NCBI GenBank assembly: GCA_020137815.1
Contig: CM035357.1
Location: forward strand, 3,410,001-3,474,000
Origin: Hormiphora californensis
Lineage: Eukaryota; Animalia; Ctenophora
Direction: 5' to 3'
DNA length: 64,000 nucleotides
Shown: positions 661-64,000 of the stretch, piece after piece
Position numbering within the stretch: position 1 is the stretch's first letter
Layout: every line of letters starts with the position of its first letter
Program-made: the position numbers and the translations under genes
Notes under the pieces: model-generated
Seen by the model: the letters and a program-made list of their open reading frames with translations, nothing else
Databases searched by the model: none
What the model was told of the DNA's origin: nothing

Positions 661-972
661 AGGGATCCCTAAACTGGGGAATTTTTCGGATATTTTTTTT
701 TTGAAAATTTGAAATTTGAGTTTTTTGTCGCGAAAAGACCCAAAACTTTGACGCGCGCGGCGCGGCGGGTAATTGCGGGTAATACGATGCGTATTGGCGC
801 CATACGTCAAGTCGCAAATGTCGTCATAGCGATTACGTCATCGGGTGGGGCGATCGCTTCGAAACTTTGGGGCTGACAAAATGAAACGCATATGTGGTCG
901 TGTGCAAAAGGAATAAGCGATTTGAGAACCTTGAATTTTGTATGCGTACACCCTAATATACTGTAATTGAAG

Positions 973-3900
973 AGTCTAAACAACCCGAAATGACAATTTA
1001 AACATATTTTGACATATTTTGAGGCCCTGAGACCAGCGGGTGGCCAAATTTAATCAGGTTTCGGGTCGGCTGACGTAAAAACTCCGCGTTTTGGTCGAGG
1101 TAAAACCATAACCATAAACCATAACCATAGATATTTTTAGAGTGAAAGTTTTGAAGCCCCCTGAAGTAGTAGAGAGGTGTTCTATGGCTCGTTGGAAAGG
1201 TCTCGAGGTCCCGCGACGTATAGGGGGTGTGGCGATGGCCATACCCAAACCCATAAGGTGTAGGACGCGAAAAACAGTCAAAATAAGGGGTATACAGAAC
1301 TCGGCAATTAGAAGGAGTAGAAAGGTGTTCTAGGGTGCGTTCGAAAGATCTCGAGGTGCTGAAGTAATTGGAATGTAATTGGAAGTAATTACATGTAATT
1401 AAAATGTAATTACATGTAATTAAAGGGTAATTACATGTAATTAAAATGTCTAAATGACCCAGAATGATAATTTAAACATATTTTGACATATTTGGAGGCC
1501 CTGAAATCAGCGGGTGGCCAAATTTAATCCGGTTTCGGGTCGGCTGACGTAAAAACTCCGCGTTTTGGTCGATCAATAAACCATAAAACCATAAACCATA
1601 AAACCATAGATATTTTTAGAGTGAAAGTTTTGAAGCCCCCTGAAGTATTAGAGAGGTGTTCTATGGCTCGTTGGAAAGGTCTCGAGTTCCCGCGACGTAT
1701 AGGGGGTGTGGCGATGGCCATACCCAAACCTATAAGGGGTAGGACGCGAAAAACAGTCAAAATAAGGGGTATACAGAACTCGGCAATTAGAAGGAGTAGA
1801 AAGGTGTTCTAGGGTGCATTCGAAAGCTCTCGAGGTGCTGAAGTAATTGGAATGTAATTGGAAGTAATTACATGTAATTAAAATGTAATTACATGTAATT
1901 AAAGGGTAATTACATGTAATTAAAAGGTCTAAATGACCCCAAATGACAATTCAGACATATTTTGACATATTTTGAGGCCCTGAGACCAGCGGGTGGCCAA
2001 ATTTAATCCGGTTTCGGGTCGGCTGACGTAAAAACTCCGCGTTTTGGTCGAGGTAACCATAAACCATAACCATAAAACCATAGATATTTTTAGAGTGAAA
2101 GTTTTGAAGCCTCCTGAAGTAGTAGAGAGGTGTTCTATGGCTCGTTGGAAAGGTCTCGAGGTCCCGCGACGTATAGGGGGTGTGGCGATGGCCATACCCA
2201 AACCTATAAGGGGTAGGACGCGAAAAACAGTCAAAATAAGGGGTATACAGAACTCGGCAATTAGAAGGAGTAGAAAGGTGTTCTAGGGTGCGTTCGAAAG
2301 CTCTCGAGGTGCTGAAGTAATTGGAATGTAATTGGAAGTAATTACATGTAATTAAAGGGTAATTACATGTAATTATAGGGTAATTACATGTAATTAAAAG
2401 GTCTAAATGACTCCAAATGACAATTCAGACATATTTTGACGTATTTGGAGGCTCTGAGACCAGCGGGTGGCCAAATTTAATCAGGTTTCGGGTCGGCTGA
2501 CGTAAAAAACTCCGCGTTTTGGTCGAGGTAACCATAAACCATAAACCATAAACCATAGATATTTTTAGAGTGAAAGTTTTGAAGCCCCCTGAAGTAGTAG
2601 AGAGGTGTTCTATGGCTCGTTGGAAAGGTCTCGAGGTCCCGCGACGTATAGGGGTTGTGGCGATGGCCATACCCAAACCCATAAGGGGTAGGACGCGAAA
2701 AACAGTGAAAATAAGGGGTATACTGAACTCGGCAATTAGAAGGAGTAGAAAGGTGTTCTAGGGTGCGTTCGAAAGCTCTCGAGGGTACTGAAGTAATTGG
2801 AATGTAATTGGAAGTAATTACATGTACTTAAAATGTAATTACATGTAATTAAAGGGTAATTACATGTAATTGAAAGGTCTAAATGACCCAGAATGATAAT
2901 TTAAACATATTTTGACGTATTTGGAGCAATTGGAAGGAGTAGAAAGGTGTTCTAGGGTGCGTTCGAAAGCTCTCGAGGTGCTGAAGTAATTGGAATGTAA
3001 TTGGAAGTAATTACATGTAATTAAAGGGTAATTACATGTAATTAAAGGGTAATTACATGTAATTAAAAGGTCAGCATGATCCCAAATGATAATTTAAACA
3101 TATTTTGACGTATTTGGAGGCCCTGAGACCAGCGGGTGGCCAAATTTAATCCAGTTTCGGGTCGGCTGACGTAAAAACTCCGCGTTTTGGTCGAGTAAAC
3201 CATAAACCATAAACCATAGATATTTTTAGAGTGAAAGTTTTGAAGCCCCCTGAAGTAGTAGAGAGGTGTTCTATGGCTCGTTGGAAAGGTCTCGAGGTCC
3301 CGCGACGTATAGGGGGTGCGGCGATGGCCGTACCCAAACCCATAAGGGGTAGGACGCGAAAAACAGTCAAAATAAGGGGTATGCAGATCTCGGCAATTAG
3401 AAGGAGTAGAAAGGTGTTCTAGGTAGCGTTCGAAAGCTCTCGAGGTGCTGAAGTAATTGGAATGTAATTGGAAGTAATTACATGTAATTAAAATGTAATT
3501 ACATGTAATTAAAGGGCAATTACATGTAATCAAAAGGTCTAAATGACCCCAAATGACAATTTAAACATATTTTAACGTATTTGGAGGCCCTGAGACCAGC
3601 GGGTGACCAAATTTATTCCGGTTTCGGGTCGGCTGACGTAAAAACTCCGCGTTTTGGTCGAGTAACCATAAACCATAACCATAGATATTTTTAGAGTGAA
3701 AGTTTTGAAGCCCCCTGAAGTAGTAGAGAGGTGTTCTATGGCTCGTTGGGAAGGTCTCGAGGTCCCGCGACGTATAGGGGGTGTGGCGATGGCCATACCC
3801 AAACCTATAAGGGGTAGGACGCGAAAAACAATCAAAATAAGGGGTATACAGAACTCGGCAATTAGAAGGAGTAGAAAGGTGTTCTAGGGTGCGTTCGAAA

Positions 3901-6900
3901 GCTCTCGAGGTGCTGAAGTAATTGGAATGTAATTGGAAGTAATTACATGTAATTAAAATGTAATTACATGTAATTAAAGGGTAATTACATGTAATTAAAA
4001 GGTCTAAATGACCCCAAATGACAATTTAGACATATTTTGACATATTTGGAGGCCCTGAGACCAGCGGGTGGCCAAATTTAATCAGGTTTCGGGTCGGCTG
4101 ACGTAAATAAACCATAAACCATAAACCATAACCATAACCATAAAACCATAGATATTTTTAGAGTGAAAGTTTTGAAGCCCCCTGAAGTAGTAGAGAGGTG
4201 TTCTATGGCTCGTTGGAAAGGTCTCGAGGTCCCGCGACGTATAGGGGGTGTGGCGATGGCCATACCCAAACCTATAAGGGGTAGGACGCGAAAAACAGTC
4301 AAAATAAGGGGTATACAGAACTCGGCAATTGGAAGGAGTAGAAAGGTGTTCTAGGGTGCGTTCGAAAGCTCTCGAGGTGCTGAAGTAATTGGAATGTAAT
4401 TGGAAGTAATTACATGTAATTAAAATGTAATTACATGCAATTAAAGGGTAATTACATGTAATTAAAAGGTCTAAATGACCCCAAATGACAATTTAGACAT
4501 ATTTTGACATATTTGGAGGCTCTGAGACCAGCGAGTGGCCAAATTTAATCAGGTTTCGGGTCGGCTGACGTAAAAACTCCGCGTTTTGGTCGAGGTAACC
4601 ATAAAACCATAACCATAAACCATAGATATTTTTAGAGTGAAAGTTTTGAAGCCCCCTGAAGTAGTAGAGAGGTGTTCTATGGCTCGTTGGAAAGGTCTCG
4701 AGGTCCCGCGACGTATAGGGGGTGTGGCGATGACCATACCCAAACCCATAAGGGGTAGGACGCGAAAAACAGTCAAAATAAGGGGTATACAGAACTCGGC
4801 AATTAGAAGCAGTAGAAAGGTGTTCTAGGATGCGTTCGAAAGCTCTCGAGGTGCTGAAGTAATTGGAATGTAATTGGAAGTAATTACATGTAATTAAAAT
4901 GTAATTACATGTAATTAAAGGGTAATTACATGTAATTAAAAGGTCTAAATGACCCCAAATGAAAATTCAGACATATTTTGAAATATTTGGAGACCCTGAG
5001 ACCAGCGGATGGCCAAATTTAATCTGGTTTCGGGTCGGCTGACGTAAAAACTCCGCGTTTTGGTCGAGGTAAACCATAACCATAAAACCATAGATATTTT
5101 TAGAGTGAAAGTTTTGAAGCCCCCTGAAGTAGTAGAGAGGTGTTCTATGGCTCGTTGGAAAGGTCTCGAGGTCCCACGACGTATAGGGGGTGTGGCGATG
5201 GCCATACCCAAACCTATAAGGGGTAGGACGCGAAAAACAGTCAAAATAAGGGGTATGCTGAACTCGGCAATTAGAAGGAGTAGAAAGGTGTTCTAGGGTG
5301 CGTTCGAAAGCTCTCGAGGTGCTGAAGTAATTGGAATGTAATTGGAAGTAATTACATGTAATTAAAGGGTAATTACATGTAATTAAAGGGTAATTACATG
5401 TAATTAAAAGGTCTAAATGATCCCAAATGACAATTCAGACATATTTTGACATATTTGGAGGCCCTGAGACCAGCGGGTGGCCAAATTTAATCCGGTTTCG
5501 GGTCGGCTGACGTAAAAACTCCGCGTTTTGGTCGAGGTAAACCATAAACCATAACCATAGATATTTTTAGAGTGAAAGTTTTGAAGCCCCGCTGAAGTAG
5601 TAGAGAGGTGTTCTATGGCTCGTTGGAAAGGTCTCGAGGTCCCGCGACGTATAGGGGGTGTGGCGATGGCCATACCCAAACCTATAAGGGGTAGGACGCG
5701 AAAAACAGTCAAAATAAGGGGTATACAGAACTCGGCAATTAGAAGGAGTATAAAGGTGTTCTAGGGTGCGTTCGAAAGCTCTCGAGGTGCTGAAGTAATT
5801 GGAATGTAATTGGAAGTAATTACATGTAATTAAAATGTAATTACATGTAATTAAAGGGTAATTACATGTAATTAAAAGGTCTAAATGACCCCAAATGACA
5901 ATTTAAACATATTTTGACATATTTGGAGGCCCTGAGACCAGCGGATGGCAAAATTTAATCCGGTTTCGGGTCGGCTGACGTAAAAACTCCGCGTTTTGGT
6001 CGAGGTAAACCATAAAACCATAGATATTTTTAGAGTGAAAGTTTTGAAGCCCCCTGAAGTAGTAGAGAGGTGTTCTATGGCTCGTTGGAAAGGTCTCGAG
6101 GTCCCGCGACGTATAGGGGGTGTGGCGATGGCCATACCCAAACCTATAAGGGGTAGGACGCGAAAAACAGTCAAAATAAGGGGTATACAGAACTCGGCAA
6201 TTAGAAGGAGTAGAAAGGTGTTCTAGGGTGCGTTCGAAAGCTCTCGAGGTGCTGAAGTAATTGGAATGTAATTGGAAGTAATTACATGTAATTAAAATGT
6301 TATTACATGCAATTAAAGGGTAATTACATGTAATTATTAATTAATTAATTACTAATTAAAAGGTCTAAATGACCCCAAATGACAATTTAGACATATTTTG
6401 ACATATTTGGAGGCTCCGAGACCAGCGAGTGGCCAAATTTAATCAGGTTTCGGGTCGGCTGACGTAAAAACTCCGCGTTTTGGTAGAGGTAACCATAACC
6501 ATAAAACCATAAAACCATAGATATTTTTAGAGTGAAAGTTTTGAAGCCCCCTGAAGTAGTAGAGAGGTGTTCTATGGCTCGTTGGAAAGGTCTCAAGGTC
6601 CCGCGACGTATAGGGGGTGCGGCGATGGCCGTACCCAAACCCATAAGGGGTAGGACGCGAAAAACAGTCAAAATAAGGGGTATGCAGATCTCGGCAATTA
6701 GAAGGAGTAGAAAGATTTTCTAGGTAGCGTTCGAAAGCTCTCGAGGTACTGAAGTAATTGGAATGTAATTGGAAGTAATTACATGTAATTAAAATGTAAT
6801 TACATGTAATTAAAGGGTAATTACATGTAATTAAAAGGTCTAAATGACCCCAAATGACAATTTAGACATATTTTGACATTTTTGGAGGCCCTGAGACCAG

Positions 6901-8573
6901 CGGGTGGCCAAATTTAATCAGGTTTCGGGTCGGCTGACGTAAAAACTCCGCGTTTTGGTCGAGGTAACCGTAAAACCATAAACCATAAAACCATAGATAT
7001 TTTTAGAGTGAAAGTTTTGAAGCCCCCTGAAGTAGTAGAGAGGTGTTCTATGGCTCGTTGGAAAGGTCTCGAGGTCCCGCGACGTATAGGGGGTGTGGCG
7101 ATGGCCATACCCAAACCTATAAGGGGTAGGACGCGAAAAACAGTCAAAATAAGGGGTATACAGAACTCGGCAATTAGAAGGAGTAGAAAGGTGTTCTAGG
7201 GTGCGTTCGAAAGCTCTCGAGGTGCTGAAGTAATTGGAATGTAAAGTCGGATTTTTTGAAACTGTCACCCCCCTGGGTATTTTCAAATTTCGTAAATGAC
7301 CATAAATCCGGTTCCTGACGAGATAGAGACTTGAAATTTGGAGGTTACGAAGATCTTGCTAAGTTCTTCCGAACCTCCAAATTTCAAGTCTCTATCTCAT
7401 CAGGAACCGGAGATATGGCAAATTTTGTTATTTCAGGGGGGTGACAGTTTCAAAAAATCCGACTTTAATTGGAAGTAATTACATGTAATTAAAATGTAAT
7501 TACATGTAATTAAAGGGTAATTACATGTAATTAAAAGGTCTAAATGACCCCAAATGACAATTCAGACATATTTTGACATATTTGGAGGCCCTGAGACCAG
7601 CGGGTGGCAAAATTTAATCCGGTTTCGGGTCGGCTGACGTAAAAACTCCGCGTTTTGGTCGAGGTAACCATAAACCATAAACCATAGATATTTTTAGAGT
7701 GAAAGTTTTGAAGCCCCCTGAAGTAGTAGAGAGGTGTTCTATGGCTCGTTGGAAAGGTCTCGAGGTCCCGCGACGTATAGGGGGTGTGGCGATGGGTGTG
7801 CCCAAACCTATAAGGGGTAGGACGCGAAAAACAGTCAAAATAAGGGGTATGCTGAACTCGGCAATTAGAAGGAGTAGAAAGGTGTTCTAGGGTGCGTTCG
7901 AAAGCTCTCGAGGTGCTGAATTAATTGGAATGTAATTGGAAGTAATTACATGTAATTAAAATGTAATTACATGTAATTAAAGGGTAATTACATGTAATTA
8001 AAAGGTCTAAATGACCCCAAATGACAATTCCGACATATTTGGAGGCCCTGAGACCAGCAAGTGGCAAAATTTAATCAGGTTTCGGGTCGGCTGACGTAAA
8101 AACTCCGCGTTTTGGTCGAGATACCAGATAAAAAAAACCATAAAACCATAGATATTTTTAGAGTGAAAGTTTTGAAGCCCCCTGAAGTCGTAGAGAGGTT
8201 TTCTATGGCTCGTTGGAAAGGTCTAGAGGTCCCGCGACGTATAGGGGGTGCGGCGATGACCGTACCCAAACCCATAAGGGGTAGGACGCGAAAAACAGTC
8301 AAAATAAGGGGTATGCAGATCTCGGCAATTAGAAGGAGTAGAAAGGTGTTCTAGGTAGCGTTCGAAAGCTCTCGAGGTGCTGAAGTAATTGGAATGTAAT
8401 TGGAAGTAATTACATGTAATTAAAGGGTAATTACATGTAATTAAAAGGTCTGCATGATCCCAAATGATAATTTAAACATATTTTGACGTATTTGGAGGCC
8501 CTGAGACCAGCGGATGGCCAAATTTAATCCGGTTTCGGGTCGGCTGACGTAAAAACTTCGCGTTTTGGTCGAG
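973..8573. repeat. Tandem array of a ~470 bp unit (15 full units plus partial units)
   Basis: Units start aaccatagatatttttagagtg near 1123, 1603, 2078, 2552, 3213, 3678, 4146, 4620, 5087, 5554, 6017, 6514, 6991, 7681 and 8145 and end ttttggtcgag. Each carries internal AATTACATGTAATT palindromes and a variable (AACCATA)n linker. Confidence 0.95.
7244..7465. mobile_element. Tc1/mariner-type MITE inserted into one satellite unit
   Basis: TIR aagtcggattttttgaaactgtcacccccctg with a TA duplication. The empty site ggaatgTAattgg is present in the other units. Confidence 0.9.
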
Positions 8574-9260
8574 TTTACCAATCCCTGTAAATATTTTCCG
8601 GTTACTTACAAGCCGATTCTTGCGAAATGTTTGGGGTTCATTAATTTCCCAATATTCACGAGCTATTCATCTACTGAATCTCTGAAGACTAGTCAGCTAG
8701 CCTTCAGAGATAGTCGAATAATTATATTATGTCAAGATAAATACGAGGATGCACCAACAATTTTAATTCTAGCATAAACTCGCCATATATGACCAAAAAA
8801 TCAGAAAATAATCGGACGGTTTATCATTTATGTCACATCTGAGCGCGATTATTGTCTTGCACGCCGTTCATCCTCCCTTTAACCGTGACCTATCAAAGTA
8901 TAGGGCAGTACATCAGTCGTTTATAGCTTCTTACTTCAGAATAATATGCGAGGCAGCTGTACAGAATAGCAGTGGTATCGGGTGATTTTACATACAATAG
9001 TTACAGTGGCTATTATGTATAAACGACATTTACTTTGACACTCTGATAGGTCACGGTAAAGTGGGAGAAATGGATGATCAAAGGCGTGCAACTCGGGGTT
9101 GAACAAAACAAATACTCCATGTCACCATTAATAATATTAGTCCAGTTAATGACAATCATGAAATCAGCATAACACAACACATCAGAATCAATAATATCAA
9201 CATTATTGACACACTCAGGATCATTTGTAAAACAAAGATCTCCCGCCAGTTTAATGTTTG

Positions 9261-10810
9261 TTAAGTTATTGAATTCCTTCTCCGTAAAGTTTGCACATTT
9301 TCATTCGTAGTAATGATACCAAAATTAGTTTCTTGGATCTCGCCTCTGGTTGGCATCATAGCAATGCAACTGGAACATTTCATATGCATCTTAATACAAT
9401 TCGATGTGTTATCGGCAACTTTACATTCCTCCTCTTTCTTGTTCACGGGTACTCCATCACCGACAATGTTTTGCCGGTGACAATTATCTACACTTATAAT
9501 ATCATTTGCTGGTTCGGGTAAGACTGGTACACCATGAACCAATGCACAGATTGATGACCAAGAATTCATAGCAGCTGCCATTTTTTCCATGGCAGGTCTA
9601 AGCACATCAAACACTTTAGTTAGTATATCACTGTACAAAAGTGGGTTTAGTACAGAGTTAATTGGTAGGATGTTGAGGGAGAAGACCTGGTACCACGGTG
9701 ACATATCCACCACCTCGGCTGTATGGAGGGCACAACAAATCAAGAAGGGTAGCCAACAACATAAGTCCGTTACACACAACCAAGTAACTTTGCGACCAAG
9801 TTTATTATTGTTGCGCCGGTCTGCCCCAGGAACTGCCGCCTTAATCGACAAGACCACAATTAAGATATGGCACACTGCAACGGTCATAAAGCAGAGAAAG
9901 TGAAGGCTGATGTAGAACCAGACAAAGACAACCTGGGGATCATTGGGGAGGACAAAAAACTTAAACGTACAAACTGGATCGTTACCGTAGAATGACACCT
10001 TTTTACCTGAAACAGTCCCATAATCCGCGGAAAACATTTCCGCGACCATTCCTTGAATTGTATTCCAGGAAATGCCAGCCTTCCTTCGAGAACGTTCAGA
10101 GTACCTTACCCCGTAGTAGCCATAGACAATCTGCAAAAATCGTGCCTTGTCCACCGTACCAAGGAAAAGTGATATATTCTTAGGAAATACAAGTCCATTG
10201 ACAAACCAATCTTCCAAAGAATCTAGTAGAGGCACTAATGCAAATGCGAGAGCAATAAGCAAAATAAACGCTAGGCATAGAATAACTTTAAGCCGAAGCT
10301 CCTCCGAAACATCGCCAGACTGTCTGTAACGAAGAGCTCGTCTTGTTCCATAAAGCCGGTAAATGCTTATACCCGCCATGGCTAAGGAGGAAACTGTCGC
10401 TCCGACCGTGTTTAGTACACCTATGATTTTACAAGTTCTCCCACTAATCCATTCTAATTGCTTAACACAGAAATCAGTGCTTTTAAAGATATGCAGGGTT
10501 GTTAAGGTGAGGAGATAGCAGGGAGTTAAGAGATCTCCAAAGGAGATTGCAAGTACGAACACATGATTCACAAAGGCTCCACTTTTATCCGGAAGTTTCT
10601 GGATAAATGTTTTCACGAAGGCTGTTAATCTCAACGGCAAACACAGTTGGCGTAACTCAGAAAGGGGACAATTTCAGTGCTCTCCAATTGCGTCGCGGCG
10701 CGGGGGGGGGGTCACTCTCTCTCTCTCTCTCCCCCTTTTCGATGGTTTCTGAACACTCACAGACACTGTGTGGTGATCTCAAATTTCTCTCTCTCTCTCT
10801 CTCTCTCTCC

Positions 10811-11618: not shown

Positions 11619-14600
11619 ATCTCTCTCTATCTATCTATCTATCTATCTCTCTGATTGAGAGAGTGAGAGCGGGATTGAGAGAGGGAGATTATCTATGGTT
11701 TTGTATGTCTTTGGGGATGTTATACGCCCAAAGACATACACTAATGGGGACCCCTACCCGGAAGCCGGATAATATGGTCTCGGGTGTCCTAAACCTACAG
11801 TTTTTGGACACCGGAGACTTACTATCCGGCTTCCTGATTAAAGTGGTTTATTGTCCCAAGCCGTGAATTCGGCAAAACATTTCGTTGTTTCACGACATTA
11901 TTGTACACTGTGTGTTCCTTTGCTGGGGTGCTCCGTGCTTGAGTTTCCCCTCTCTCTATCTCTTACCGCGAACCGTAGAACAGAATGAGCTTGTACGAGT
12001 TATAGATCTCTACAGCTGGAGAGTGGAGACGTGACACACGTCGACATCTCTCTCTCTCTTCCTTTCCCTCTCTCTATCTCTCTCTCTGGACCCTGGACTA
12101 TCTCTCCGTCACTCTCTTACTCTTTCAACATTTTAGCGAAGTCTCCGCATCAGCAAAAGATTCCATCTGGTAGTTTGGATGCCAAAAACACACTTCCCGG
12201 GGTGCTAGAGCCCCGAAAACCCCAGGAATCTTGAATGAGGGTAGAGAATAGTCTAGGTATGTAGTTTCATGACATAATCTTGTCAGCTTTTTTCTGGGTG
12301 AAGCCCAACGCTTGTAAAGATACAAAATGATTAATGAACACCCTGTACATGTACATACATTAACATGCTACATATTATCAACAACAACTACATTGATGGG
12401 TGAGAAGCGTTAAGGGCCAAAACCAAAATCCCCTTAGATGTATGGAATTTTTTATTTCTCCATTTTTTTCGACAATAACACCAGTGCAGCAGTGCGATAA
12501 TATCGAAGAGCAGCCAGCAAGGACGCTGCTCAGTTTCAAAAAAATATCTCAATCTTCCTTTCTCTCTGATATGTGGTCCCAAGGGAATACTGATCCCCTC
12601 TAACAAGGTTTTACTAGTAAAAGTATGTCTCTCACTTTTCTCCCCTTTGAGAAAAGAGAGAGCGATACATTAGTTTAGTACTCCCTGACTTGACGTAGGG
12701 GGCGAAAAGGAGAGATCTGTACAGTGCTGAACTGATATTTATGGTAAAGTACGCCAACTGTGTTTGCCGTCTACTTTAGTCCTATAGAAATTCCAAGGAC
12801 CCCCATAATAGATGCGATCAAGATCGTAACATAACTTTTAACTACTGTCCTACTGCAGCTGTCATTGCATTCGTCTGAAAAGTCCTTGCAGTCAGCTTTT
12901 CCATCGCATTTCTGGCTCAGAGGTAAAAACGAGGAGTTATCAGCACACTGGAAATTGTTGGCACACCCAGCATCCTCATCAGACCTGTCCCCACAGTCAT
13001 CAACCAGGTCACACACCCTCTCAAATAGAATACACTTCCGGTTTTTACACACGAACACGTTGTTATGAAACGCAGTTTTTTGTCGGAAAACTGATGTCAC
13101 AACACTTAACTCCGTGTTAAGTGAGTAAACTGCAATTGGGAGATTGTGACAGGAATTATGTAGTACCGGTCTATTCAAAGGGCATGCAGCATTTATACAT
13201 AGTCCAGTACAGCTGTGAAGGACATACGCCTCACCATAGAGGTATCTACAATCTTGCTTCCGGTCCAATGTGACAAGGGCTGTTGTTAGGTTCTTACCGA
13301 AGAATTGGTGAAATGGGTAGTTGAATTTTCGGAGTGAACACTGCTCCTTCATATGAAGGAGCACCGAGGAAAGACCTTTGTTGCATACATTTCCAACCAG
13401 ATATTCATTTCCAAATAGTTGAGCGGACGAAGGTCGGGCTAGAGCTTTATTTACATTTACCCTTCTTCTCGCGCTCTGACAAACCCCCTCGTCGCACGTA
13501 TGGGCCGAAGAACATACGATGGAAGAGTCTAGGAATTCTGAATGGTTGCCATAGCACAAGAACACGTTAGAACACGGTGCCGTGTCCACCTTAATCCTCA
13601 GAGTGGTGCCATTGCCGCACTTTTCCCAATTATCTTTCTCGTCGATGCCACTTTCACAATCTAAAACTCCATCTTGGATCCAATCCACCGGAACTCGAGA
13701 CAATTTCCCAAACCGTCTCTGACAAGTGTGAGTGGTAACTTTACCAGATCCACACCATATTTGACCCTCATCCATGCCACCTGCACAATCCTCCGTACCA
13801 TCACAAAGCTTATGCTTATGAATAAAGCAATACCGACCAACCCTGACACACTTCAACTCGATCCCATCATCACACAACTGTGGAGATTTATTGCTATCAC
13901 AGATCACATAGATGGAAATTGTGCTGCGATAACCGTTCACCAGACAGCTACCTCCTATCTTGGCCGGATCTGTGCAGTTAGTTTGGTCCATTCCAGATTG
14001 TACGCAGTAGGTAGACCTTTGAGGACTGAAAATATTTTCATTTCGACCATTGAATGTTAAGAAACATCGTGAACCGTTATACAAGGCAAATCTGCTACTG
14101 ATATGGCCGATACCATAAGATAATGCGTCACAAAGAAGTGCATCCTGATCCCAAGGAGGGGCTGTTCCTTCTTTTGGCATTCCTTGGAACGGCATAAAGA
14201 CCAGATCGTTAGAAACAGTTCCGTAGACGATTCCCCCGCCGCAATCCCGCTCCTCGACACACGTCATTTTGGAGCTTTGTGTTTCGCCAATCCAGATATC
14301 GTCACATATCCCATCGCAAACACCTCCCAATTTCAATGTGACCTCGACAATACTACCATTTTGTAGAGTGATATGATAAAACATAGTTCCTCCAGTTTTA
14401 TCGCTACACGCCTGGACGTCTTTCTGGACAAAGTTATCTTCAAAATTGTCGAAACAGACAACTCCACAAACCGGTGGCTGATCAAACATTTCAAGGAGAC
14501 TATGGTCAAAGAATTTGCCCATATATAATTGTCCACATGCCTGATAGATAGCGTCATCATTTGGGCAGAGTACAGAATAATGAGTTGTGGATATACGTTT

Positions 14601-15349
14601 TATACCGTTGTAGACTCCCTGTTTTTTATAGGTCACATTGGCCCAGTGCGAAACGTTGTTCAAGGTGTTATCAATGTGAAATCCGGTCGAAAAAAGTGCT
14701 ATAATTTTTTTCTATGAGGGTGATATTTTTAGGGTGATATTTTCCAATGCGCCACTATCACTGAGAGTTGTATATCACTGAATCATAATACTGGTCGGTG
14801 TTAGCCCTTGAAAAATTTCGCAGCGCCGGCAAGGGCCCCCAGGAGTATCTTAAATGCACATATGCATTCCGTGCATTCCAGCAGTTTTAAAGACTATCCG
14901 AGCAAGAAAAACTACTTTTGACATTATATCTACTATCTAGGAGTACATATAATGGTCGGTGTTAGCACCTGAAAAAATTTAGCAGCGCTGGCAAGCGCCA
15001 CTAGCGTATAATGATGATGATGGGGGTGAAATAAGTCATAAATTTAAGCATAAAAGTGATATCAATTAGATTGATAAATTGGCCAACATTTCGCACCGGG
15101 CACATTGGGAGCGGTGACACATTGAAAAATACTTTCACGCATCGAGAAGTACCGCTCCGTATTACAGATGTGGGCTAGAAACCCGTAATCAATGGCGATA
15201 GGACAAAGCTTCCCGTCTTCATAAGTATCAGATTGCGAAGAATTTACTCCAGATGAGTCAGTCATGGGTCCACTGTTGTCTGGAAAAGGGTCGACTGTTG
15301 CAAGAAGCACATTCAGTGTAAAGAACATTTTCCAGGTTCCTGTAGACAT
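9261..15349 (-). CDS. LDLa-repeat-containing rhodopsin-class GPCR (GRL101-related, no LRRs seen); coding segments ~15349-15062, ~14700-12775 and 10629-9261
   Basis: The first segment has a signal-peptide-like start. The 630-aa ORF has LDLa motifs (CDGTEDCAGGMDE, CDLVDDCGDRSDE, CDGKADCKDFSDEC) and the start of TM1. The 459-aa ORF has TM2-7 with GDLL, CWLPF and NPLLY. The two large ORFs are in the same frame. The first junction is uncertain. Confidence 0.85.
10630..12774 (-). mobile_element. 2.1 kb TIR element interrupting GPCR TM1; candidate spliced introner-like insertion
   Basis: Perfect 21-bp TIR ACGGCAAACACAGTTGGCGTA at 10634-10654 and 12750-12770. Minus-strand GT at 12774 and AG at 10630 lie 4 nt outside the TIRs. 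The interior has CT/GA tracts, a hairpin (~11050-11110) and a MITE fragment (~12125-12345). Confidence 0.75.
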
Positions 15350-18089: not shown

Positions 18090-18487
18090 TCATATTCGGG
18101 GCCTGGCAAGGCCCCCCGACCCGAATATAACCCAAACTCAACCCATCCCCCCTAAAACATCCCCCCCCTAAAACTAAAACAACGGGGCCGAGCCGACAGG
18201 CCCTTAATACCAGATGAAAAAAAACCATAAACCATTCGGGGCCTGGCAAGGCCCCCCCCCCCCCCCCCCCCGACCCGAATATAACCCAAACTCAACCCAT
18301 CCCCCCTAAAACATCCCCCCTAAAACTAAAACAACGGGGCCGAGCCGACAGGCCCTTAATACCAGATGAAAAAAAAAACATTAGGGGCCTGGCAAGGCCC
18401 CCCGACCCGAATATAACCCAAACTCAACCCATCCCCCTACAACAACGGGGCCGAGCCGACAGGCCCTTAATACCAGATGAAAAAAAA
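18090..18487. repeat. Three copies of a ~110-145 bp unit with a GGGGCCTGGCAAGGCCCC hairpin
   Basis: Repeats of ggggcctggcaaggcccc...gccgagccgacaggcccttaataccagatgaaaaaaaa. Confidence 0.85.
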
Positions 18488-18952
18488 AACCATAAAACCA
18501 TAAACCATAAAACCATAGATATTTTTAGAGTGAAAGTTTTGAAGCCCCCTGAAGTAGTAGAGAGGTGTTCTATGGCTCGTTGGAAAGGTCTCGAGGTCCC
18601 GCGACGTATAGGGGGTGTGGCGATGGCCATACCCAAACCTATAAGGGGTATAGGACGCGAAAAACAGTCAAAATAAGGGGTATAAAGAACTCGGCAATTA
18701 GAAGGAGTAGAAAGGTGTTCTAGGGTCCGTTCGAAAGCTCTCGAGGTCCTAAAGTAATTGGAATGTAATTGGAAGTAATTACATGTAATTAAAATGTAAT
18801 TACATGTAATTAAAGGGTAATTACATGTAATTAAAAGGTCTAAATGACCCCAAATGACAATTCAGACATATTTTGACATATTTGGAGGCCCTGAGACCAA
18901 ATTTAATCCGGTTTCGGGTCGGCTGACGTAAAAACTCCGCATTTTGGTCGAG
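18488..18952. repeat. Solo dispersed copy of the 470-bp satellite unit
   Basis: Near-identical to the array units, from aaccataaaaccatagatatt to ttttggtcgag. Confidence 0.95.
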
Positions 18953-19704: not shown

Positions 19705-22700
19705 ATGGCTAAGATAAGTGGACCTGTTTCACAATATGAGAGAGCACGGAGAGAGAAGATCAAAAGGAATAAAGCCATCGTAAGTGCTCAATGAATTTAC
19801 ACCCATTACCCTGGTTTACCAAACTGTGTCCTGGTATAGTCGGACCCCCATTTAACGGAACTCCAATTCATAGGGAGGGTAAACTTTCTCCCGAGCATCC
19901 CGGTACAAATTGGGGTCCGACTGTATCTCAAAATATATTTTACACACCTCCAAGCCTAGCAACTAGTTTTTACTCCCAATCTAATGTTTTATACCCAATA
20001 ATAATGTATTTCAGTTAGCAAGTGTCTTCCCAGACCTGGAATCAGCAAGAGCGAATGTGTGTCCATCTCTACCAATCGAACCTCCTCGCAAGAAGAAAAA
20101 GGCAAGGGTGAGTCTCGTAGACAGAACACGATTTTTTGTCTATCTGGCAGCGCCGTGCACCCGATCTGGGCGCTCTGTCCTCAGCTTGAGAATCTAGACG
20201 GGGGGGGGGGGGCAGATTATTCTAATTTCTTGTTCGACCAGCCTTCTCACTGTGTGCCACTTTTCAGAGTACGTTTGAAAGGAAGATGGTGAAAGAGACT
20301 CCGTACCAAGCCAAGGTGGTGAGAAGGAACCCCTCCCGACACGCTCGGAACACCATCGATCATGTTCCTGATGGTGAGTTAGTCTTGGTATCGAAGACAC
20401 CTCACACTCTGCACGCTGGCAAGGGGTAACCTCGTAACCAAGAGTTAGTCTACCCTATCTCTTATGCGTATGAGTATTGGCCTGGCCCTATTTGATTATC
20501 ATTTCGTTCAAATAAGGAAACAGCGGTCAGAGCATTGGCCTAATAGTGCTGCTTGCAGTCAAAATTTGGTTACGAAGTCACCCCTATTATTGCATATAGG
20601 GGTGACAATACCGCCTACCTAAAAATGACAATTTACGGGACCTTCTCATAAAAAGTTATCGAAAACTTGTCTAAAACCTATCTAAAACGTATGGTACTAG
20701 TTTGTATAGTAACCAGGACCTGAATTCTACAGAAAGTAACGACCGGTAGCGATTACACCACATGTTTAACAACAGAGGTGTGTCGCATAACTCCTTATAT
20801 GGGCATAAAATTCCAATCTTGTGGAATTTTTTCTGACTCGACTATAGCTTAGTTATCAATGAATCCACCTCTAATACCTTTGGAATGGCATTTTGCACAT
20901 TTCTGAAGGTTTTTGTAGCCAAATTCCAGCATCTTCATAGTTTTCCAAAAACAAAAAGAGTGTTAATGGCCAAAATTTCGAAAAATTCCGGTATGTAATG
21001 GTAGCTCAGACAATTTCCTCGGTATGTTCAAAAAATTAGAACTTTCTGTTTTGTAGTTTGGACACAGGAATTTTTTTCCCGCCGTACAAGCGATATTATT
21101 ACCCCTCCGTGAGCTAGCGCAGAGGGGGAATTTCATTACCAAAGTCAAAATACGGTAACGCAAAATACAGTAAGGAGACGCGCACGGTGCATAACGCGCA
21201 GCAAAAAGTTCATGTGTCAGCACGTACTAGCGCCCTGATTGGTCACGGTTGCGCGTCGTCTTACTGTATCTTCGTTTTCCATTACCGTTTTCCCACTACA
21301 AGCGACCGTGTTACAACTTTCTCTCTCTCTCCATCTTTCTTTGTTTATATCTTTCTCGGGCGTTATTTTATTGTTTGCATTAATTATAATTCACCCATGT
21401 GCTGAATAATGAATCCCCAATGATTGTATAGGTGTCGAGGTAGCACTACGGGAGAGTGGAGACCACGATGAGTTTTTTGAGACACCCATTTGTCTCTCAA
21501 CATCTACGGGCCGCTATCATGTAAGATTATATTATCATATCAGATCAGATAATCGTACAGTACCATAAATGTGAGATTGTATCCCCTCTTTTGGCTTGAA
21601 GACCCCTTACTCAACAACTTTTTGCTGGACGCACAATTTAGCGATTTGAATTTACAATTACCATGTAAATTTACAACTACTGTGTATTTTTTCAGAACAG
21701 ACCAGTGAGAGAGGTAGAAGTTGAATTCAAAACTGAGGAGGATCGAGAGAAGTGGAATGAGGATGTATCTAAACCAGCGGAGCATTTCACAGACAAAATC
21801 TATAGTGCTAATGTAGGTTTAATTCATTCCAAATACTATTGTTCCAATACTAATTCACTTTTATCAATCAGCCCATTAGTACATAATTGACACCCATTAA
21901 CCCTAATTGACACTAATTAACTCTTTACATAACCACACACAGGGTACGACATGTCACCAGTGCCGACAAAAGACACTGGACGGTAAAACCCGGTGTAAGA
22001 ATATCAACTGCCCGGGTCAGAGGGGGCAGTTTTGTAACGTTTGTCTGAAGAATAGATACGGAGAAAAGGTGCTGGATGCCCTACAGGATAAGGTATGTTA
22101 CATGTAGCGGGATGTTCCACAAACATACTGTTTATATCGCCCCATCTTTATCCCCATAGTTCTGTAACTCACTGCCCACCTGATCTGGTGCCGCCCGTCA
22201 ATGTTTACAACCTCCCCCGATCCCCGTCTGGCGTCTTGTCCAGTGTCCTCTCCTGTACCCCCCGGCCCCCCAACTTTTCCTATCCTGTAACCCCTCTCCC
22301 TCTACAGAGATGGCTGTGTCCACCATGTCGTGGTATTTGCAACTGCTCCGTCTGCAACTCCCGTCGAGGAAGACCCCCAACTGGTGTGCTTCTACCCATC
22401 GCAATGGAAAAGGGGTTTTCTTGTGTCAAGGATTATTTGGAAAGGTGAGATTCTGAAAAAGAATGTATGGGGGGGGCGTCACCTTTTTATTGCCCATAAT
22501 CCCAGCGAATTTTGGTTTTGCCCATATGGGCAAAATGGGCAAAAGTGGGCAAATTGAAATGTTCAGTGTTATATAATATGTCGTTTTTTCAAGTCTATAC
22601 CTTGATTTCATCTCTTAAAAACTCGGTCAGAATTAAAATGGTCTTAATTTGGTGTCTAATTAGAAGTCAAATTCTTTTTAGTGGTCAAATCCTAAATTTA

Positions 22701-23528
22701 GGATTTTTTAGGTTTTTTTGGCTTTAATGGGTTTTAGAAACATCCTAGAACAAAATAAATACAAGCATCTTCCTCAGCGCGAAATTCTGCTTCAATTATA
22801 GTGGCTATAAACCTATCTATGATGTAAGGTGCAGGAGTTATTTTTTGCCCATTTTTGCCCATTTTGCCCAAAGTCCCACGATTCCCCCCCCCCCCCCCCC
22901 CCCCCCCGATGTATGGGAAGTTTATTTGATGCAAATATCTGTAACATATAATATGTTGCTCAGAAGTGTTCATAGACTGTTCTGTTCAAGCCTTATCTCA
23001 ATTCTTTTTGTTGAGTTACTCAAAAAATTATTTGCAGTGTCGAACAGAAGAAAGGAAAGAAACGAAAGGCTGGAGGAGAACTTGTTGTTGAGTTTGATGA
23101 TGAGAACAAGGAAAATATCGATCCGAGGGAGCATGTAAAACAGGTACATATTTTATTCTCTGGATCAGCTGTGTAGGGCTGACGGCACCGTCCGTGGTGA
23201 TTGGTGGAGACATGTGAAGAGAGTGACCCCTGTGGTGTACTAACATGGTCCCGAGTTTTATCAGGCATAGACGACTCGAGATTTTACAAAGTTTATTCGT
23301 AAGATTAAGAAAATTGTGAATTTGTAATCGTTTTTATTGTATCGTCAGGGAAATTTAAACATTCCATCCTCTCAGGAACTACAGACTGAAGACATCAAAG
23401 TTGAACCAACGAGGGAAATAAAGGAGGAAATGTTAGAAGAGGACTGTTTCGAGAATATAGATCCTGAACTTATTGAACAAGCATTGATTGCAGTCAAACA
23501 GGAATTGAGTGAAAAGGGGATTGAGTGA
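19705..23528 (+). CDS. CDCA7: CDCA7-like zf-4CXXC_R1 zinc-finger protein, 9 coding exons
   Basis: GT-AG exons join in frame: [25 protein letters not shown] ... [50 protein letters not shown] / [16 protein letters not shown]...PTGVL...[10 protein letters not shown]. This matches the CDCA7 finger, including the CRQK, GQFC and NRYGE motifs. Confidence 0.9.
20543..21312. mobile_element. Insertion in intron 3 of CDCA7 copy 1, absent from the same intron of copy 2
   Basis: Copy 2 reads gagcattggccta-acaactttctctc with no insert. Its first ~540 bp recur at ~23571-24103. Confidence 0.7.
22472..22908. mobile_element. MULE-like MITE with a 9-bp TSD in a CDCA7 copy-1 intron
   Basis: G-run and C-run ends, inverted gggcaaaa/ttttgccc repeats, flanking atgtatggg at 22463-22471 and 22909-22917. 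Absent from copy 2. Confidence 0.7.
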
Positions 23529-24104
23529 AAACAATGATGATTGAATTGGACTCTATAGTTTTTAATTTTCTTGCTGCTTGCGTCAAAATTTGGTTACGAA
23601 GTCACCCCATTATTGCATATGGGGTGACAATACCCCACCTAAAAATACAATTTACGGGACCTTCTCATAAAAAGTTATCGAAAACTTGTCTAAAACCTAT
23701 CTAAAACGTATGGTACTATTTTGTATAGTAACCAGGACCTGAATTCTACAGAAAGTAACGACCGGTAGCGATACACCCACATGTTATAACACAGAGGTGT
23801 GTCGCATAACTCCTTATATGGGCATAAAATTCCAATCTTGTGGAATTTTTTCTGACTCGACTATAGCTTTTTATCAATGAATCCACCTCTAATACCTTTG
23901 GAATGGCATTTTGCACATTTTCTGAAGGTTTTTGTAGCCAAATTCCAGCATCTTCATAGTTTTCCAAAAACAAAAAGAGTGTTAATGGCCAAAATTTCGA
24001 AAAATTCCGGTATGTAATGGTAGCTCAGACAATTTCCTCGGTATTTCAAAAATTAGAACTTTCTGTTTTGTAGTTTGGACACAGGAATTTTTTTTTCCCG
24101 CCGG

Positions 24105-27100
24105 CCATCTCTACCACTCGAACCTCCTCGTAAGAAGAAAAAGGCAAGGGTGAGTCTCGTAGACAGAACACGATTTTTTGTCTATCTGGCAGCGCCGTGC
24201 ACCCGATCTGGGCGCTCTGTCCTCAACTTGAGAATCTAGACGGGGGGGGGGACAGATTATTGTATAATTCTTGTTCGACCAGCCTTCTCACTGTGTGCCA
24301 CTTTTCAGAGTACGTTTGAAAGGAAGATTGTGAAAGAGACCCCGTACCAAGCCAAGGTGGTGAGAAGGAACCCCTCCCGACACGCTCGGAACACCATCGA
24401 TCATGTACCCGATGGTGAGTGAGCCTACCATATCTCTTATTGGGCATATTAGTATTGGCCTGGCCCTATTTGATTATCATTTCGTTCGAATAAGGAAACA
24501 GCGGTCAGAGCATTGGCCTAACAACTTTCTCTCCCCATCTTTCTTTGTTTATATCTTTCTCGGGCGTTATTTTATTGTTTGAATTTATTATAATTCACCC
24601 ACGTGTGCTGAATAATGAACCCCCAATGATTGTATAGGTGTCGAGGTAGCGTTACGGGAGAGTGGAGACCACGATGAGTTTTTTGAGACCCCCATTTGTC
24701 TCTCAACATCTACGGGCCGCTATCATGTAAGATCATATCATAATATCAGATCAGATAATCGTACAGTACCGATGATTATGTGAGATTGTATCCCCTCTTT
24801 TTGCTTGAAGACCCCTTACTCAACAACTTTTTGCTGGACGCAAAATTTAGCGATTTGAATTTACAATTACCATGTAAATTTACAACTACTGTGTATTTTT
24901 TTCAGAACAGACCAGTGAGAGAGGTAGAAGTTGAATTCAAAACTGAGGAGGATCGAGAGAAGTGGAATGAAGATGTATCTAAACCAGCGGAGCATTTTAC
25001 AGACAAAATCTACAGTGCTAATGTAGGTTTAATTCATTCTAAATATTTTTGTTCCACTTTTATTAATTAGTAATACATAATTGACACCCATTAACCCCGC
25101 CTAATCGACACTAATTAACTCTTTACATTACCACACAGGGTACAACATGTCACCAGTGCCGACAAAAGACACTGGACGGTAAAACCCGGTGTAAGAACAT
25201 CAACTGCCCGGGACAGAGGGGGCAGTTTTGTAACGTTTGTCTGAAGAATAGATACGGAGAAAAGGTGCTGGATGCCCTACAGGATAAGGTATGTAGCGGG
25301 ATGTTCCACAAACATACTATTTATATCCACCCACAAACGACTTACGACATCTAATATCTCCCATAGTTCTGTAACTCACTACCCACCTGATCTAAGTGCA
25401 CTGTCGTTTGGAATCAAAACGGCCAGGCAAGAAAAATCCCCTTCACCCAACTTGTTCCCCACAACTTTTCCTACCCTGTAACCTCCTCTCCCTCCACAGA
25501 GATGGCTGTGTCCACCATGTCGGGGTATTTGCAACTGCTCCCTCTGTAACCCCTCTCCCTCTACAGAGATGGCTGTGTCCACCGTGTCGGGGTATTTGCA
25601 ACTGCTCCGTCTGTAACCCCTCTCCCTCTACAGAGATGGCTGTGTCCACCGTGTCGGGGTATTTGCAACTGCTCCGTCTGTAACCCCTCTCCCTCCACAG
25701 AGATGGCTGTGTCCACCGTGTCGGGGTATTTGCAACTGCTCCGTCTGTAACCCCTCTCCCTCTACAGAGATGGCTGTGTCCACCGTGTCGGGGTATTTGC
25801 AACTGCTCCGTCTGTAACCTCCTCTCCCTCCACAGAGATGGCTGTGTCCACCGTGTCGGGGTATTTGCAACTGCTCCGTCTGTAACCTCCTCTCTCCCTC
25901 TACAGAGATGGCTGTGTCCACCGTGTCGGGGTATTTGCAACTGCTCCGTCTGTAACCCCTCTCCCTCCACAGAGATGGCTGTGTCCACCGTGTCGGGGTA
26001 TTTGCAACTGCTCCGTCTGTAACCTCTCTCTCCCTCCACAGAGATGGCTGTGTCCACCGTGTCGGGGTATTTGCAACTGCTCCCTCTGTAACCCCTCTCC
26101 CTCTACAGAGATGGCTGTGTCCACCATGTCGGGGTATTTGCAACTGCTCCGTCTGTAACCCCTCTCCCTCCACAGAGATGGCTGTGTCCACCGTGTCGGG
26201 GTATTTGCAACTGCTCCGTCTGTAACCCCTCTCCCTCTACAGAGATGGCTGTGTCCACCATGTCGGGGTATTTGCAACTGCTCCGTCTGTAACCCCTCTC
26301 TCCCTCTACAGAGATGGCTGTGTCCGCCGTGTCGGGGTATTTGCAACTGCTCCGTCTGTAACCCCTCTCTCCCTCTACAGAGATGGCTGTGTCCGCCGTG
26401 TCGGGGTATTTGCAACTGCTCCGTCTGTAACCTCCTCTCTCCCTCTACAGAGATGGCTGTGTCCACCGTGTCGGGGTATTTGCAACTGCTCCGTCTGTAA
26501 CCCCTCTCTCCCTCTACAGAGATGGCTGTGTCCACCGTGTCGGGGTATTTGCAACTGCTCCGTCTGTAACCCCTCTCCCTCTAGAGAGATGGTTGTGTCC
26601 ACCGTGTCGGGGTATTTGCAACTGCTCCGTCTGCAACCCCTCTCCCTCTACAGAGATGGCTGTGTCCACCGTGTCGGGGTATTTGCAACTGCTCCGTCTG
26701 TAACCCCTCTCTCCCTCTACAGAGATGGCTGTGTCCGCCGTGTCGGGGTATTTGCAACTGCTCCGTCTGTAACCTCCTCTCTCCCTCTACAGAGATGGCT
26801 GTGTCCACCGTGTCGGGGTATTTGCAACTGCTCCGTCTGTAACCCCTCTCTCCCTCTACAGAGATGGCTGTGTCCACCGTGTCGGGGTATTTGCAACTGC
26901 TCCGTCTGTAACCCCTCTCCCTCTAGAGAGATGGTTGTGTCCACCGTGTCGGGGTATTTGCAACTGCTCCGTCTGTAACCCCTCTCCCTCTACAGAGATG
27001 GCTGTGTCCACCATGTCGGGGTATTTGCAACTGCTCCGTCTGTAACCCCTCTCCCTCTACAGAGATGGCTGTGTCCACCGTGTCGGGGTATTTGCAACTG

Positions 27101-28168
27101 CTCCGTCTGTAACCTCCTCTCTCCCTCCACAGAGATGGCTGTGTCCACCGTGTCGGGGTATTTGCAACTGCTCCGTCTGTAACCCCTCTCCCTCTACAGA
27201 GATGGCTGTGTCCACCGTGTCGGGGTATTTGCAACTGCTCCGTCTGTAACCTCTCTCCCTCCACAGAGATGGCTGTGTCCACCGTGTCGGGGTATTTGCA
27301 ACTGCTCCGTCTGTAACCCCTCTCCCTCTACAGAGATGGCTGTGTCCACCGTGTCGGGGTATTTGTAACTGCTCCGTCTGTAACCTCTCTCCCTCCACAG
27401 AGATGGCTGTGTCCACCGTGTCGGGGTATTTGCAACTGCTCCGTCTGTAACTCCCGCCGAGGAAGACCCCCAACTGGTGTGCTTCTACCCATCGCAATGG
27501 AAAAGGGGTTTTCTTGTGTCAAGGATTATTTGGAAAGGTGAGATTCTAAAAAAGGACGCGGGAAGTTTATTTGATGCAACATATATGTTGCTCAGAAGTG
27601 TTCATAGACTGTTCTGTTCAAGCCTTATCTCAATTCTTTTTGTTGAGTTACTCAAAAAATTATTTGCAGTGTCGAACAGAAGAAAGGAAAGAAACGAAGG
27701 GCTGGAGGAGAACTTGTTGTTGAATTTGATGATGAGAACAAAGAAAATATCGATCCGAGGGGAAATGTAAAACAGGTACATATTTTATTCTCTGGATCAG
27801 CTGTGTAGGGCTGACGGCACCGTCCGTGGTGGAGACAGTGTGAAGAGAGTGACCCCTGGCCCTGTGGTGAACTCACGTGGTCCCGAGTTTTATCACTATC
27901 AGGCATAGACGACTCGAGATTTTACAAAGTTTATTTGTAAGATTAAGAAAATTGTGAATTTGTAATCGTTTTTATTATATCGTGACCTGGAAATTTAAAC
28001 ATTCCATCCTCCCAGGAACTACAGACTGAGGGCATCAAAGTTGAACCACCGAGGGAGATAAAGGAGGAAATGTTAGAAGAGGACTGTTTCGAGAATATAG
28101 ATCCTGCACTAATTGAACAAGCATTGATTGCAGTCAAACAGGAATTGAGTGAAAAGGGAATTGAGTAA
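24105..28168 (+). pseudogene. CDCA7: Second, 5'-truncated CDCA7-like copy (tandem duplicate or uncollapsed haplotype)
   Basis: Starts in the middle of exon 2 (ccatctctaccactcgaacc). Exons 3-9 are nearly identical to copy 1, with TAA at 28166-28168. No exon 1 is present. Confidence 0.75.
25476..27451 (+). repeat. 29 copies of a 67-70 bp minisatellite made of a splice acceptor plus the first 51 nt of CDCA7 exon 7
   Basis: Unit ccctctccctctacag|AGATGGCTGTGTCCACCGTGTCGGGGTATTTGCAACTGCTCCGTCTGTAAC. Copy 1 has a single instance. Confidence 0.95.
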
Positions 28169-28332: not shown

Positions 28333-28350
28333 CTACCAGTTATGCTCATA

Positions 28351-28743
28351 CAGTCGGACCCCGATTTACCGGGATCCTCGGGGGAAGCCATTTTGCCCGG
28401 TAAATCGGGGTGCCCGGCGAAGCCGGGTGGGTAATCAAAAAGCCCTTACTTGAGGCGCACCCAATGGGTGCGCTAGTTCTGTAAAATTTTGCAAAAAAAA
28501 GTTATGAAATTTTTCAAAGGTATACCAGCCACGTTCGAATCGTGTTTCGAATCGGGGCAACTTATCACGTGTCCTGCCGCTAATTAGACGGTTCGAAACG
28601 AACCGATACGTGATCCCCATTAGACCTAGCGAATTGCAAATGCAAGTTTACCAAGCGGCCAAACTTCGAAAATTTTCCAAAAAAAATCGGGGGAAAGAAA
28701 TCCTCCCGGTAAATCGGGGTTCCGGTAAATCGGGGTCCGACTG
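28351..28743. mobile_element. TA-flanked MITE (CAGTCGGACCCCGATTTACCGG family)
   Basis: TIRs with TA flanks. Relatives at 19583-19644, 19838-19923, ~33836-33918 and 35846-38440. Confidence 0.85.
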
Positions 28744-29032
28744 TACTATTATTATTTGCAGGTTCATTTTTACACTGGCAGCAGCATTTTTATCCATTTT
28801 TAACCTTTTGCATATCAATATATCATTATATTATTTCCTATTAAAGTTATTTTGTTACAACTTCATAGATCCGACTATTTTATTTGTTCCTGGAACGGGC
28901 ATTGGATTTGAGGTGGTCATTAAAAAGGATTACCATGACATGAGGGGTGACCCAAGAATCTCTGGAAAGATCTATTTATGTCCGTGGTGGTCCATTGTAT
29001 TGGTACCAATTATACCATTGCTACATTGGAGG

Positions 29033-30823: not shown

Positions 30824-60403
<29,580 letters not shown>

Positions 60404-63851: not shown

Positions 63852-64000
63852 GTTCGTGATATTGGGAACTGTAGTCAGGACGCAGGTTCGTGATATTGGG
63901 AACTGTAGTCAGGACGCAGGTTTGTGATATTGGGAACTGTAGTCAGGACGCAGGTTCGTGATATTGGAAACTGTAGTCAGGACGCAGGTTCGTGATATTG
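63824..64000 (+). repeat. At least five copies of a 34-bp exon-end/donor unit, running off the window
   Basis: GATATTGGGAACTGTAGTCAGGACGCAG|gttcgt repeated. Confidence 0.95.

Follow-up and report, generated by a model that had tools for sequence, protein, structure and literature searches.

Tandem repeats lying across intron/exon boundaries were previously described in amphioxus, where these so-called mirages have units of 10–160 bp, occur on both sides, are unstable in length and were reported to leave splicing undisturbed (PMC3087553, PMC3902484). The hosts described for them are the globins BflGb6 and BflGb9, Adh3, troponin C and PGBD5 (PMC3087553, PMC3902484). The human CBS allele c.844_845ins68 duplicates 68 bp made up of the last part of an intron, its 3′ splice site and the first part of the following exon; splicing removes the additional upstream segment, and the allele is benign (PMC7490669). 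In addition, young human paralogs with variable internal tandem repeats differ between recent copies in the number of repeats at exon-intron boundaries (PMC2812944). In microhomology-mediated tandem duplication (MTD), short direct arms of 4–25 bp flank the unit and are associated with further copy-number expansion, and microhomology-seeded duplication followed by expansion is described as a general mechanism (PMC13167724).

In this study, we report an acceptor-side repeat of this type in the ctenophore Hormiphora californensis. The window analyzed, a stretch of 64,000 nucleotides (positions 3,410,001 to 3,474,000 of contig CM035357.1, assembly GCA_020137815.1), contains two neighboring copies of the CDCA7 gene, in the second of which the intron-6/exon-7 acceptor is repeated 29 times. 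We read the repeat as a genuine and probably neutral mirage minisatellite, whose host copy is likely a young duplicate that lacks its 5′ end and lies next to an intact gene. As in amphioxus, the end of the intron and the start of the exon are repeated in tandem, the unit of 67–70 bp falls within the range of 10–160 bp, the splice signal is kept by most but not all units (the acceptor is CAG in 27 of the 29 and GAG in the other 2), and donor-side versions exist as well. Unlike the amphioxus mirages, the repeat has a ctenophore host, reaches 29 copies in comparison with 6 and 3 in BflGb6, and lies in a 5′-truncated duplicate beside an unexpanded copy. The CBS allele also repeats an intron end and exon start with the 3′ splice site, but it has two copies of 52 intron and 16 exon bases in a working gene (PMC7490669), whereas there are 29 copies here, of 23–26 plus 44 bases. 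The unit is flanked by short direct arms as in MTD, 7 bp long in this case; splice sites are not treated in the part of the MTD report consulted (PMC13167724), while the arm described here shares bases with both a branch-point-like motif and a Cys codon. The difference in repeat number between recent copies recalls the young human paralogs, for which there is transcript support, some of them with new introns (PMC2812944). The class is already known from the amphioxus mirages and the present example is probably the first noted in a ctenophore; no report of one was found in the literature searched, mainly open-access papers. Mirages would thereby extend to ctenophores. Moreover, the locus presents the boundary repeat with and without expansion side by side, which makes the idea that one base completes the microhomology testable.

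The two gene copies, both on the forward strand, were annotated as follows.

19705..23528, forward strand: CDCA7 copy 1, nine exons, 341 aa, all introns GT-AG, class I zf-4CXXC_R1, without array
19705..19779, forward strand: copy 1, exon 1, which provides the start codon and an N-terminal segment conserved among homologs (alignment); missing from copy 2
24105..28168, forward strand: CDCA7 copy 2, from the 3′ half of exon 2 to exon 9, frame and GT-AG sites intact
27401..27537, forward strand: complete exon 7 of copy 2, 137 nt, with the last acceptor; PF10497

Class I CDCA7 is defined by 11 cysteines and three ICF-type residues (PMC10538959), and its zf-4CXXC_R1/HMZF domain corresponds to PF10497 and to the structures PDB 8TLK, 8TLE, and 8YV8 (PMC10538959, PMC11343034). 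Exons 6 and 7, whose protein is identical in both copies, matched PF10497 above the cut-off. The 11 signature cysteines of copy 1 are found at residues 164–226, and the PDB chain and homolog alignments place R168, G188, and R198 at the ICF-associated human residues R274, G294, and R304, with the same spacing. Bolinopsis and Mnemiopsis gave the best full-length matches of copy 1 among 70 homologs (43% identity), and a tree of 16 named homologs grouped the gene with these two genera (support 96/96). A ctenophore-type acidic C-terminal tail follows the zf-4CXXC_R1 domain in the homolog alignment. Neither Mnemiopsis nor Ctenophora is mentioned in the main text of PMC10538959. Rfam gave no matches.

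Exon 1 had no Pfam match but aligned with a conserved N-terminal segment of the homologs, which is likely the HELLS-binding helix. Deletion of this helix in Xenopus CDCA7e abolishes HELLS binding (PMC11343034). Copy 2 departs from class I CDCA7 in having no such segment. It starts at codon 42, without exon 1, the exon-2 acceptor or a start codon, and its first in-frame Met corresponds to residue 243, beyond all 11 cysteines. Neither an exon-1 match for copy 2 nor a third CDCA7 copy was found within the window. Stops, frameshifts and broken splice sites were all absent from copy 2.

The repeat and the positions relevant to its origin are the following.

25476..27451, forward strand: array of the intron-6/exon-7 acceptor, 29 head-to-tail units (mirage minisatellite), CDCA7 copy 2 (TRF, unit splitting)
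25476..25482, forward strand: left (intronic) 7-nt arm
27445..27451, forward strand: right 7-nt arm, in the exon, comprising the Cys codon TGT and the Asn codon after it
26631..26637, forward strand: internal arm CTGCAAC, the C variant of copy 1
22285..22358, forward strand: single unexpanded unit of copy 1, arms imperfect (6 of 7)

An earlier note on this DNA had claimed a 29-copy acceptor array, and the array proved to be real: TRF delimited it at 25476–27451 with a period of 67, 29.1 copies, 96% matches and a score of 3536, and splitting gave 29 units, of 67 bp (17 units), 69 bp (6), 70 bp (4), and 68 bp (2). Each unit consists of 23–26 nt of the end of intron 6, with the branch-point-like motif, the pyrimidine tract and the AG, followed by 44 nt of exon 7; the boundary inside the unit was placed by the gene model and the PF10497 match. 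The unit runs exactly between two occurrences of CTGTAAC, one in the intron and one in the copy-2 exon, as had also been claimed; these outer arms, at 25476 and 27445, match exactly over 7 nt and no more. The left-arm motif is the sole branch-point-like motif 10–45 nt 5′ of the copy-1 acceptor, with its A 17 nt from the exon, and may act as the branch point. The 17-residue peptide ascribed to every unit is encoded by 27 of the 29, the other two having V replaced by L, and it covers 5 of the 11 signature cysteines. The unit types H-E-I-J occur twice in this order, in units 14–17 and 19–22, forming a higher-order four-unit repeat. The exon part of the units differs on average by 1.8%.

An assembly artefact would be a trivial source of the array, but the units have diagnostic variants in common and share the duplicated four-unit block, which are not products of random consensus error, and comparable arrays are present at other splice sites of the window. 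This explanation is extremely improbable.

An origin of the array at the arms is well supported. With a random breakpoint, an arm of at least 7 nt is expected with a probability of 4.1 × 10−4. Copy 1, as the earlier note had it, carries the variant CTGCAAC and a single unit: its arms, CTGTAAC at 22285 and CTGCAAC at 22352, are 67 bp apart and differ by one mismatch, and the array is absent. From this contrast it had been proposed that one silent change, TGC to TGT, enabled slippage. The microhomology-seeded origin in this proposal holds (7-nt arms), while the precedence of TGC to TGT is not established, given that one internal arm has C and that many other arm pairs are unexpanded. Exact arm pairs of at least 7 nt at a spacing of 30–150 bp number 42 and 22 in the two copies besides that of the array, about 10 per kb, and the array pair alone has expanded. 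Silent differences between the copies number 23, and the TGC/TGT site is just one of them. The trigger is plausible, the sequence being compatible with either direction of change; as a claim on the origin alone, the chances that T was present first are about even.

The composition of the units bears on the same question. The end units do not have the acceptor half that is most frequent inside the array, the exon part of the last unit equals the consensus, acceptor halves identical to that of copy 1 are found in 9 of the 29 units, four units have the copy-1 base at another silent site, and copy-1-like and copy-2-like bases are mixed at several array sites. In view of the C-type internal arm and these copy-1-like acceptor halves and bases, turnover could have overwritten the last unit. 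The copy-1 base at the second silent site may also be due to recurrent mutation at a CpG. Among the 51 coding bases of the units, five of the six variable sites leave the amino acid unchanged when read in the zinc-finger frame (post hoc test taking transitions into account, P = 0.008), in comparison with two and none of the six in the other two frames; when the two variable sites bearing the copy-1 base were left out, three of four were silent (P = 0.068, also post hoc). This bias is not predicted by purely neutral internal mutation. It fits the import of variants from working alleles, which would favor an array already present in a functional allele.

The divergence between the two copies is also mostly silent. 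Of the codons that differ, 23 are synonymous and 8 are replacements (pS 0.115, pN/pS 0.10; P = 1 × 10−9), and exons 3–7 contain 16 synonymous changes and a single replacement, so that no more than about 1% of neutral drift can have followed any loss of function. Since most of the differences are silent, the break was probably a recent event. Three bases separate the copies in exon 6 and six in exon 8, and six introns are 1.5–7.1% different. Copy 2 lacks its own start codon and 5′ exon, as in a 5′-truncated duplicate pseudogene; given the absence of stops and frameshifts and the pN/pS of 0.10, it is at most a very young one. Only the segment 20063–23567 is doubled and the second copy begins within an exon: homology to copy 1 resumes at 24105, within exon 2, immediately 3′ of a repeated element.

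23572..24103, forward strand: 530-bp repeated element at the junction of copy 1 and copy 2, 96.5% identical to 20547–21084, with a terminal hairpin
20547..21084, forward strand: second occurrence of the element, within intron 3 of copy 1, with no insertion at the corresponding position in copy 2

The junction element has a hairpin and short inverted arms, and is likely mobile. It contained no ORF of 90 aa on the forward strand and one stop-to-stop frame of 92 aa on the reverse strand. The simplest reading of the junction is that two diverged working alleles were lately joined at a mobile element.

Much of this evidence also suits a different explanation, according to which the assembly has joined two haplotypes end to end. 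Copy 2 would then be the second allele of a single gene, and the array an intronic VNTR that is tolerated, with splicing at its last acceptor. The silent-biased divergence of the copies, the differences in the six introns, the silent bias of the unit variants and the position of the junction at a repeat are all in line with this explanation, as is the high heterozygosity of a ctenophore, given as 3.2% for H. californensis (PMC8527503). However, the window has no N gap, the junction repeat is a mere 530 bp, the doubling is limited to 20063–23567 with a second copy opening in mid-exon, and the pS of 0.115 is much higher than the SNP heterozygosity of 2% given for this species (PMC8527503). We consider a haplotype join unlikely.

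With respect to splicing, the full-length frame of copy 2 is obtained solely via the last acceptor. From each of the 28 upstream acceptors the reading frame runs into a stop within exon 7, 89–1923 nt 5′ of the exon 7/8 junction, so that, if used, they would cause the truncation that the earlier note predicted. That note had also distinguished 67-bp units, which shift the frame, from 69-bp units, which keep it; single 69-bp units are indeed in frame, but every upstream acceptor still reaches a stop, even the 10 whose net shift keeps them in the frame of the last exon. According to the frames, the products would keep the cysteines and lose the C-terminal helices. In human CDCA7 these helices are needed for binding to hemimethylated DNA, which the cysteine-rich segment alone does not detectably bind (PMC11343034).

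Two further possibilities were considered and set aside. Mini-exons in frame within the array could use a GT at exon position 43, giving a 42-nt phase-0 exon, but this donor is weak, with pairing at 5 of 11 donor-consensus positions versus 6.5–9 for eight real donors; two out-of-frame GTs in the array units scored 6.0 and 6.5. Rescue of copy 2 by trans-splicing was discarded because there is no in-frame Met 5′ of the domain and no spliced-leader motif was found within the window.

The earlier note had gone further and combined trigger and effect: a silent change from TGC to TGT would have set off an array that now lowers CDCA7 output by way of truncated or decay-targeted transcripts. The exact arms of copy 2, set against the 6-of-7 arms of copy 1 with no array, speak for this proposal, together with the stops behind all upstream acceptors, which would remove the helices that human CDCA7 needs for hemimethylated-DNA binding (PMC11343034). 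Against it are the internal C-type arm, a sequence compatible with either direction of change, the abundance of silent differences and of unexpanded exact arm pairs (about 10 per kb), and the fact that copy 2 cannot start its own protein while an intact copy adjoins it. An effect on CDCA7/HELLS function is thus weakened by a headless array copy, without exon 1 or start, beside an intact one, and by the normal splicing reported for known mirages, and we consider the whole proposal very unlikely. An effect on DNA-methylation maintenance is unlikely unless read-through transcribes copy 2.

Such read-through would make both copies a single unit, with the promoter and 5′ exons of copy 1 and the poly(A) site of copy 2, in which the array would be transcribed and the choice of acceptor would affect the product. 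Two candidate signals are relevant to it.

28840..28845, forward strand: first ATTAAA/AATAAA 3′ of the copy-1 stop, past copy 2; candidate poly(A) signal
24034..24056, forward strand: cryptic AG in the element, opening a stop-free phase-0 exon of 93 nt, the size of native exon 2; candidate

The 3′ flank of copy 1 is broken about 40 nt past its stop, with no canonical poly(A) hexamer (AATAAA or ATTAAA) from there to 28840, and read-through into copy 2 is possible for this reason. Copy-1 exon 8 could be joined to copy-2 exon 3, both of them in phase 0, in a stop-free frame of 576 codons; the cryptic AG in the element would restore an in-frame exon 2 of 93 nt; copy 2 is undecayed; and trans-splicing is common in a ctenophore (PMC8527503). 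The predicted product could be a decay-prone RNA, a chimeric mRNA of normal length, or a 576-aa protein with two zinc fingers. On the other hand, read-through of this kind requires splicing to bypass exon 9 of copy 1 together with its stop, and a recent break accounts equally well for the absence of decay. Moreover, AATAAA/ATTAAA occurs just about 0.9 times per kb in this region, so a hexamer-free gap of this size is not rare, and weaker variant hexamers are present in the element at 23644–23876. Overall, read-through is unlikely. In one version of it, copy 1 would contribute the promoter and the HELLS-binding end and copy 2 the poly(A) site, and the resulting 576-aa CDCA7 would carry two readers of hemimethyl-CpG, with the 29-acceptor array governing the frequency at which the second reader is complete; this version is highly improbable.

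Under the neutral mirage minisatellite that we favor, slippage between arms 67 bp apart would have given the first duplicate. Unequal exchange may then have expanded it, as the four-unit block present twice suggests, and probably brought in bases of other alleles. A recent rearrangement at the mobile element would have set two diverged alleles one behind the other, with loss of the 5′ end of the second. Growth of the array may have preceded this break, with splicing at the last acceptor making it tolerable as in lancelets, or followed it in the absence of selection; the sequence is compatible with both orders. The array is likely a neutral by-product of replication slippage, with the supply of CDCA7 left to the intact upstream copy. 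Against a neutral reading, copy 2 is not decayed in appearance, with no stops, frameshifts or broken splice sites.

Similar repeats at other splice boundaries of the window were also considered. Outside the subtelomeric satellite, three of the seven complex minisatellite loci lie on assignable splice boundaries, and these are the three with at least five copies. With the CDCA7 array excluded, the two arrays left belong to one gene, and the P-value for this boundary bias was between 0.01 and 0.14 according to how many boundaries were assumed; a bias of minisatellites to splice sites is therefore only suggestive. That gene, at 61994–64000, encodes a sugar transporter with PF00083 in all four of its exons, two of them above the cut-off. 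Three of its four donors are duplicated, with 8, 3, and at least 5 copies. An open frame of 258 codons runs through its first donors, and donors 2–8 of the first array lie behind a stop.

The gene for a sugar transporter (PF00083) carried donor-side repeats at three of its splice boundaries, and these are listed below together with the two copies of the repeated element associated with the CDCA7 pair and the receptor-like open frames.

62182-62467, plus strand: exon-1 donor array, sugar-transporter gene; 36-bp unit, about 8 copies
63137-63260, plus strand: exon-2 donor repeat, sugar-transporter gene; threefold, degenerate
63823-64000, plus strand: exon-4 donor array, sugar-transporter gene; 34-bp unit, at least 5 copies, a lower bound given that the window end at 64000 cuts the array
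20547-21084 and 23572-24103: unclassified 530-540-bp element, two copies in the window
9261-10673 and 12771-14711, minus strand: long open frames with matches to 7tm_1 (PF00001) and LDL-receptor class A (PF00057)

In the exon-1 array, only the first donor lies ahead of the in-frame stop, and the remaining donors lie behind it. The donors of the exon-2 repeat were located at 63154, 63224, and 63254.

The 530-540-bp element exhibited a 10-11-bp hairpin close to its left end and inverted arms of 14 nt. Within copy 1, the intact CDCA7 gene, it is followed by a 230-bp segment (21085-21314) with 18-nt terminal direct repeats. Short nested repeats were present at 28348-28740, 3' of copy 2 (the CDCA7 duplicate), with matches at 33838-33921, 35843-36434, 38102-38421, and 62519-62583; they are likely miniature transposons.

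The two minus-strand frames are possibly parts of a single receptor gene. The window opens with CCCTAA telomere-type repeats, followed by a 464-474-bp satellite (jointly 3-50 and 954-8580), and a related stretch reappears near 18100-18840. Additionally, a complex array with periods of 60, 91, 151, and 243 bp, not assigned to any gene, was found at 55088-55720, its minus strand containing donor-like and acceptor-like motifs.
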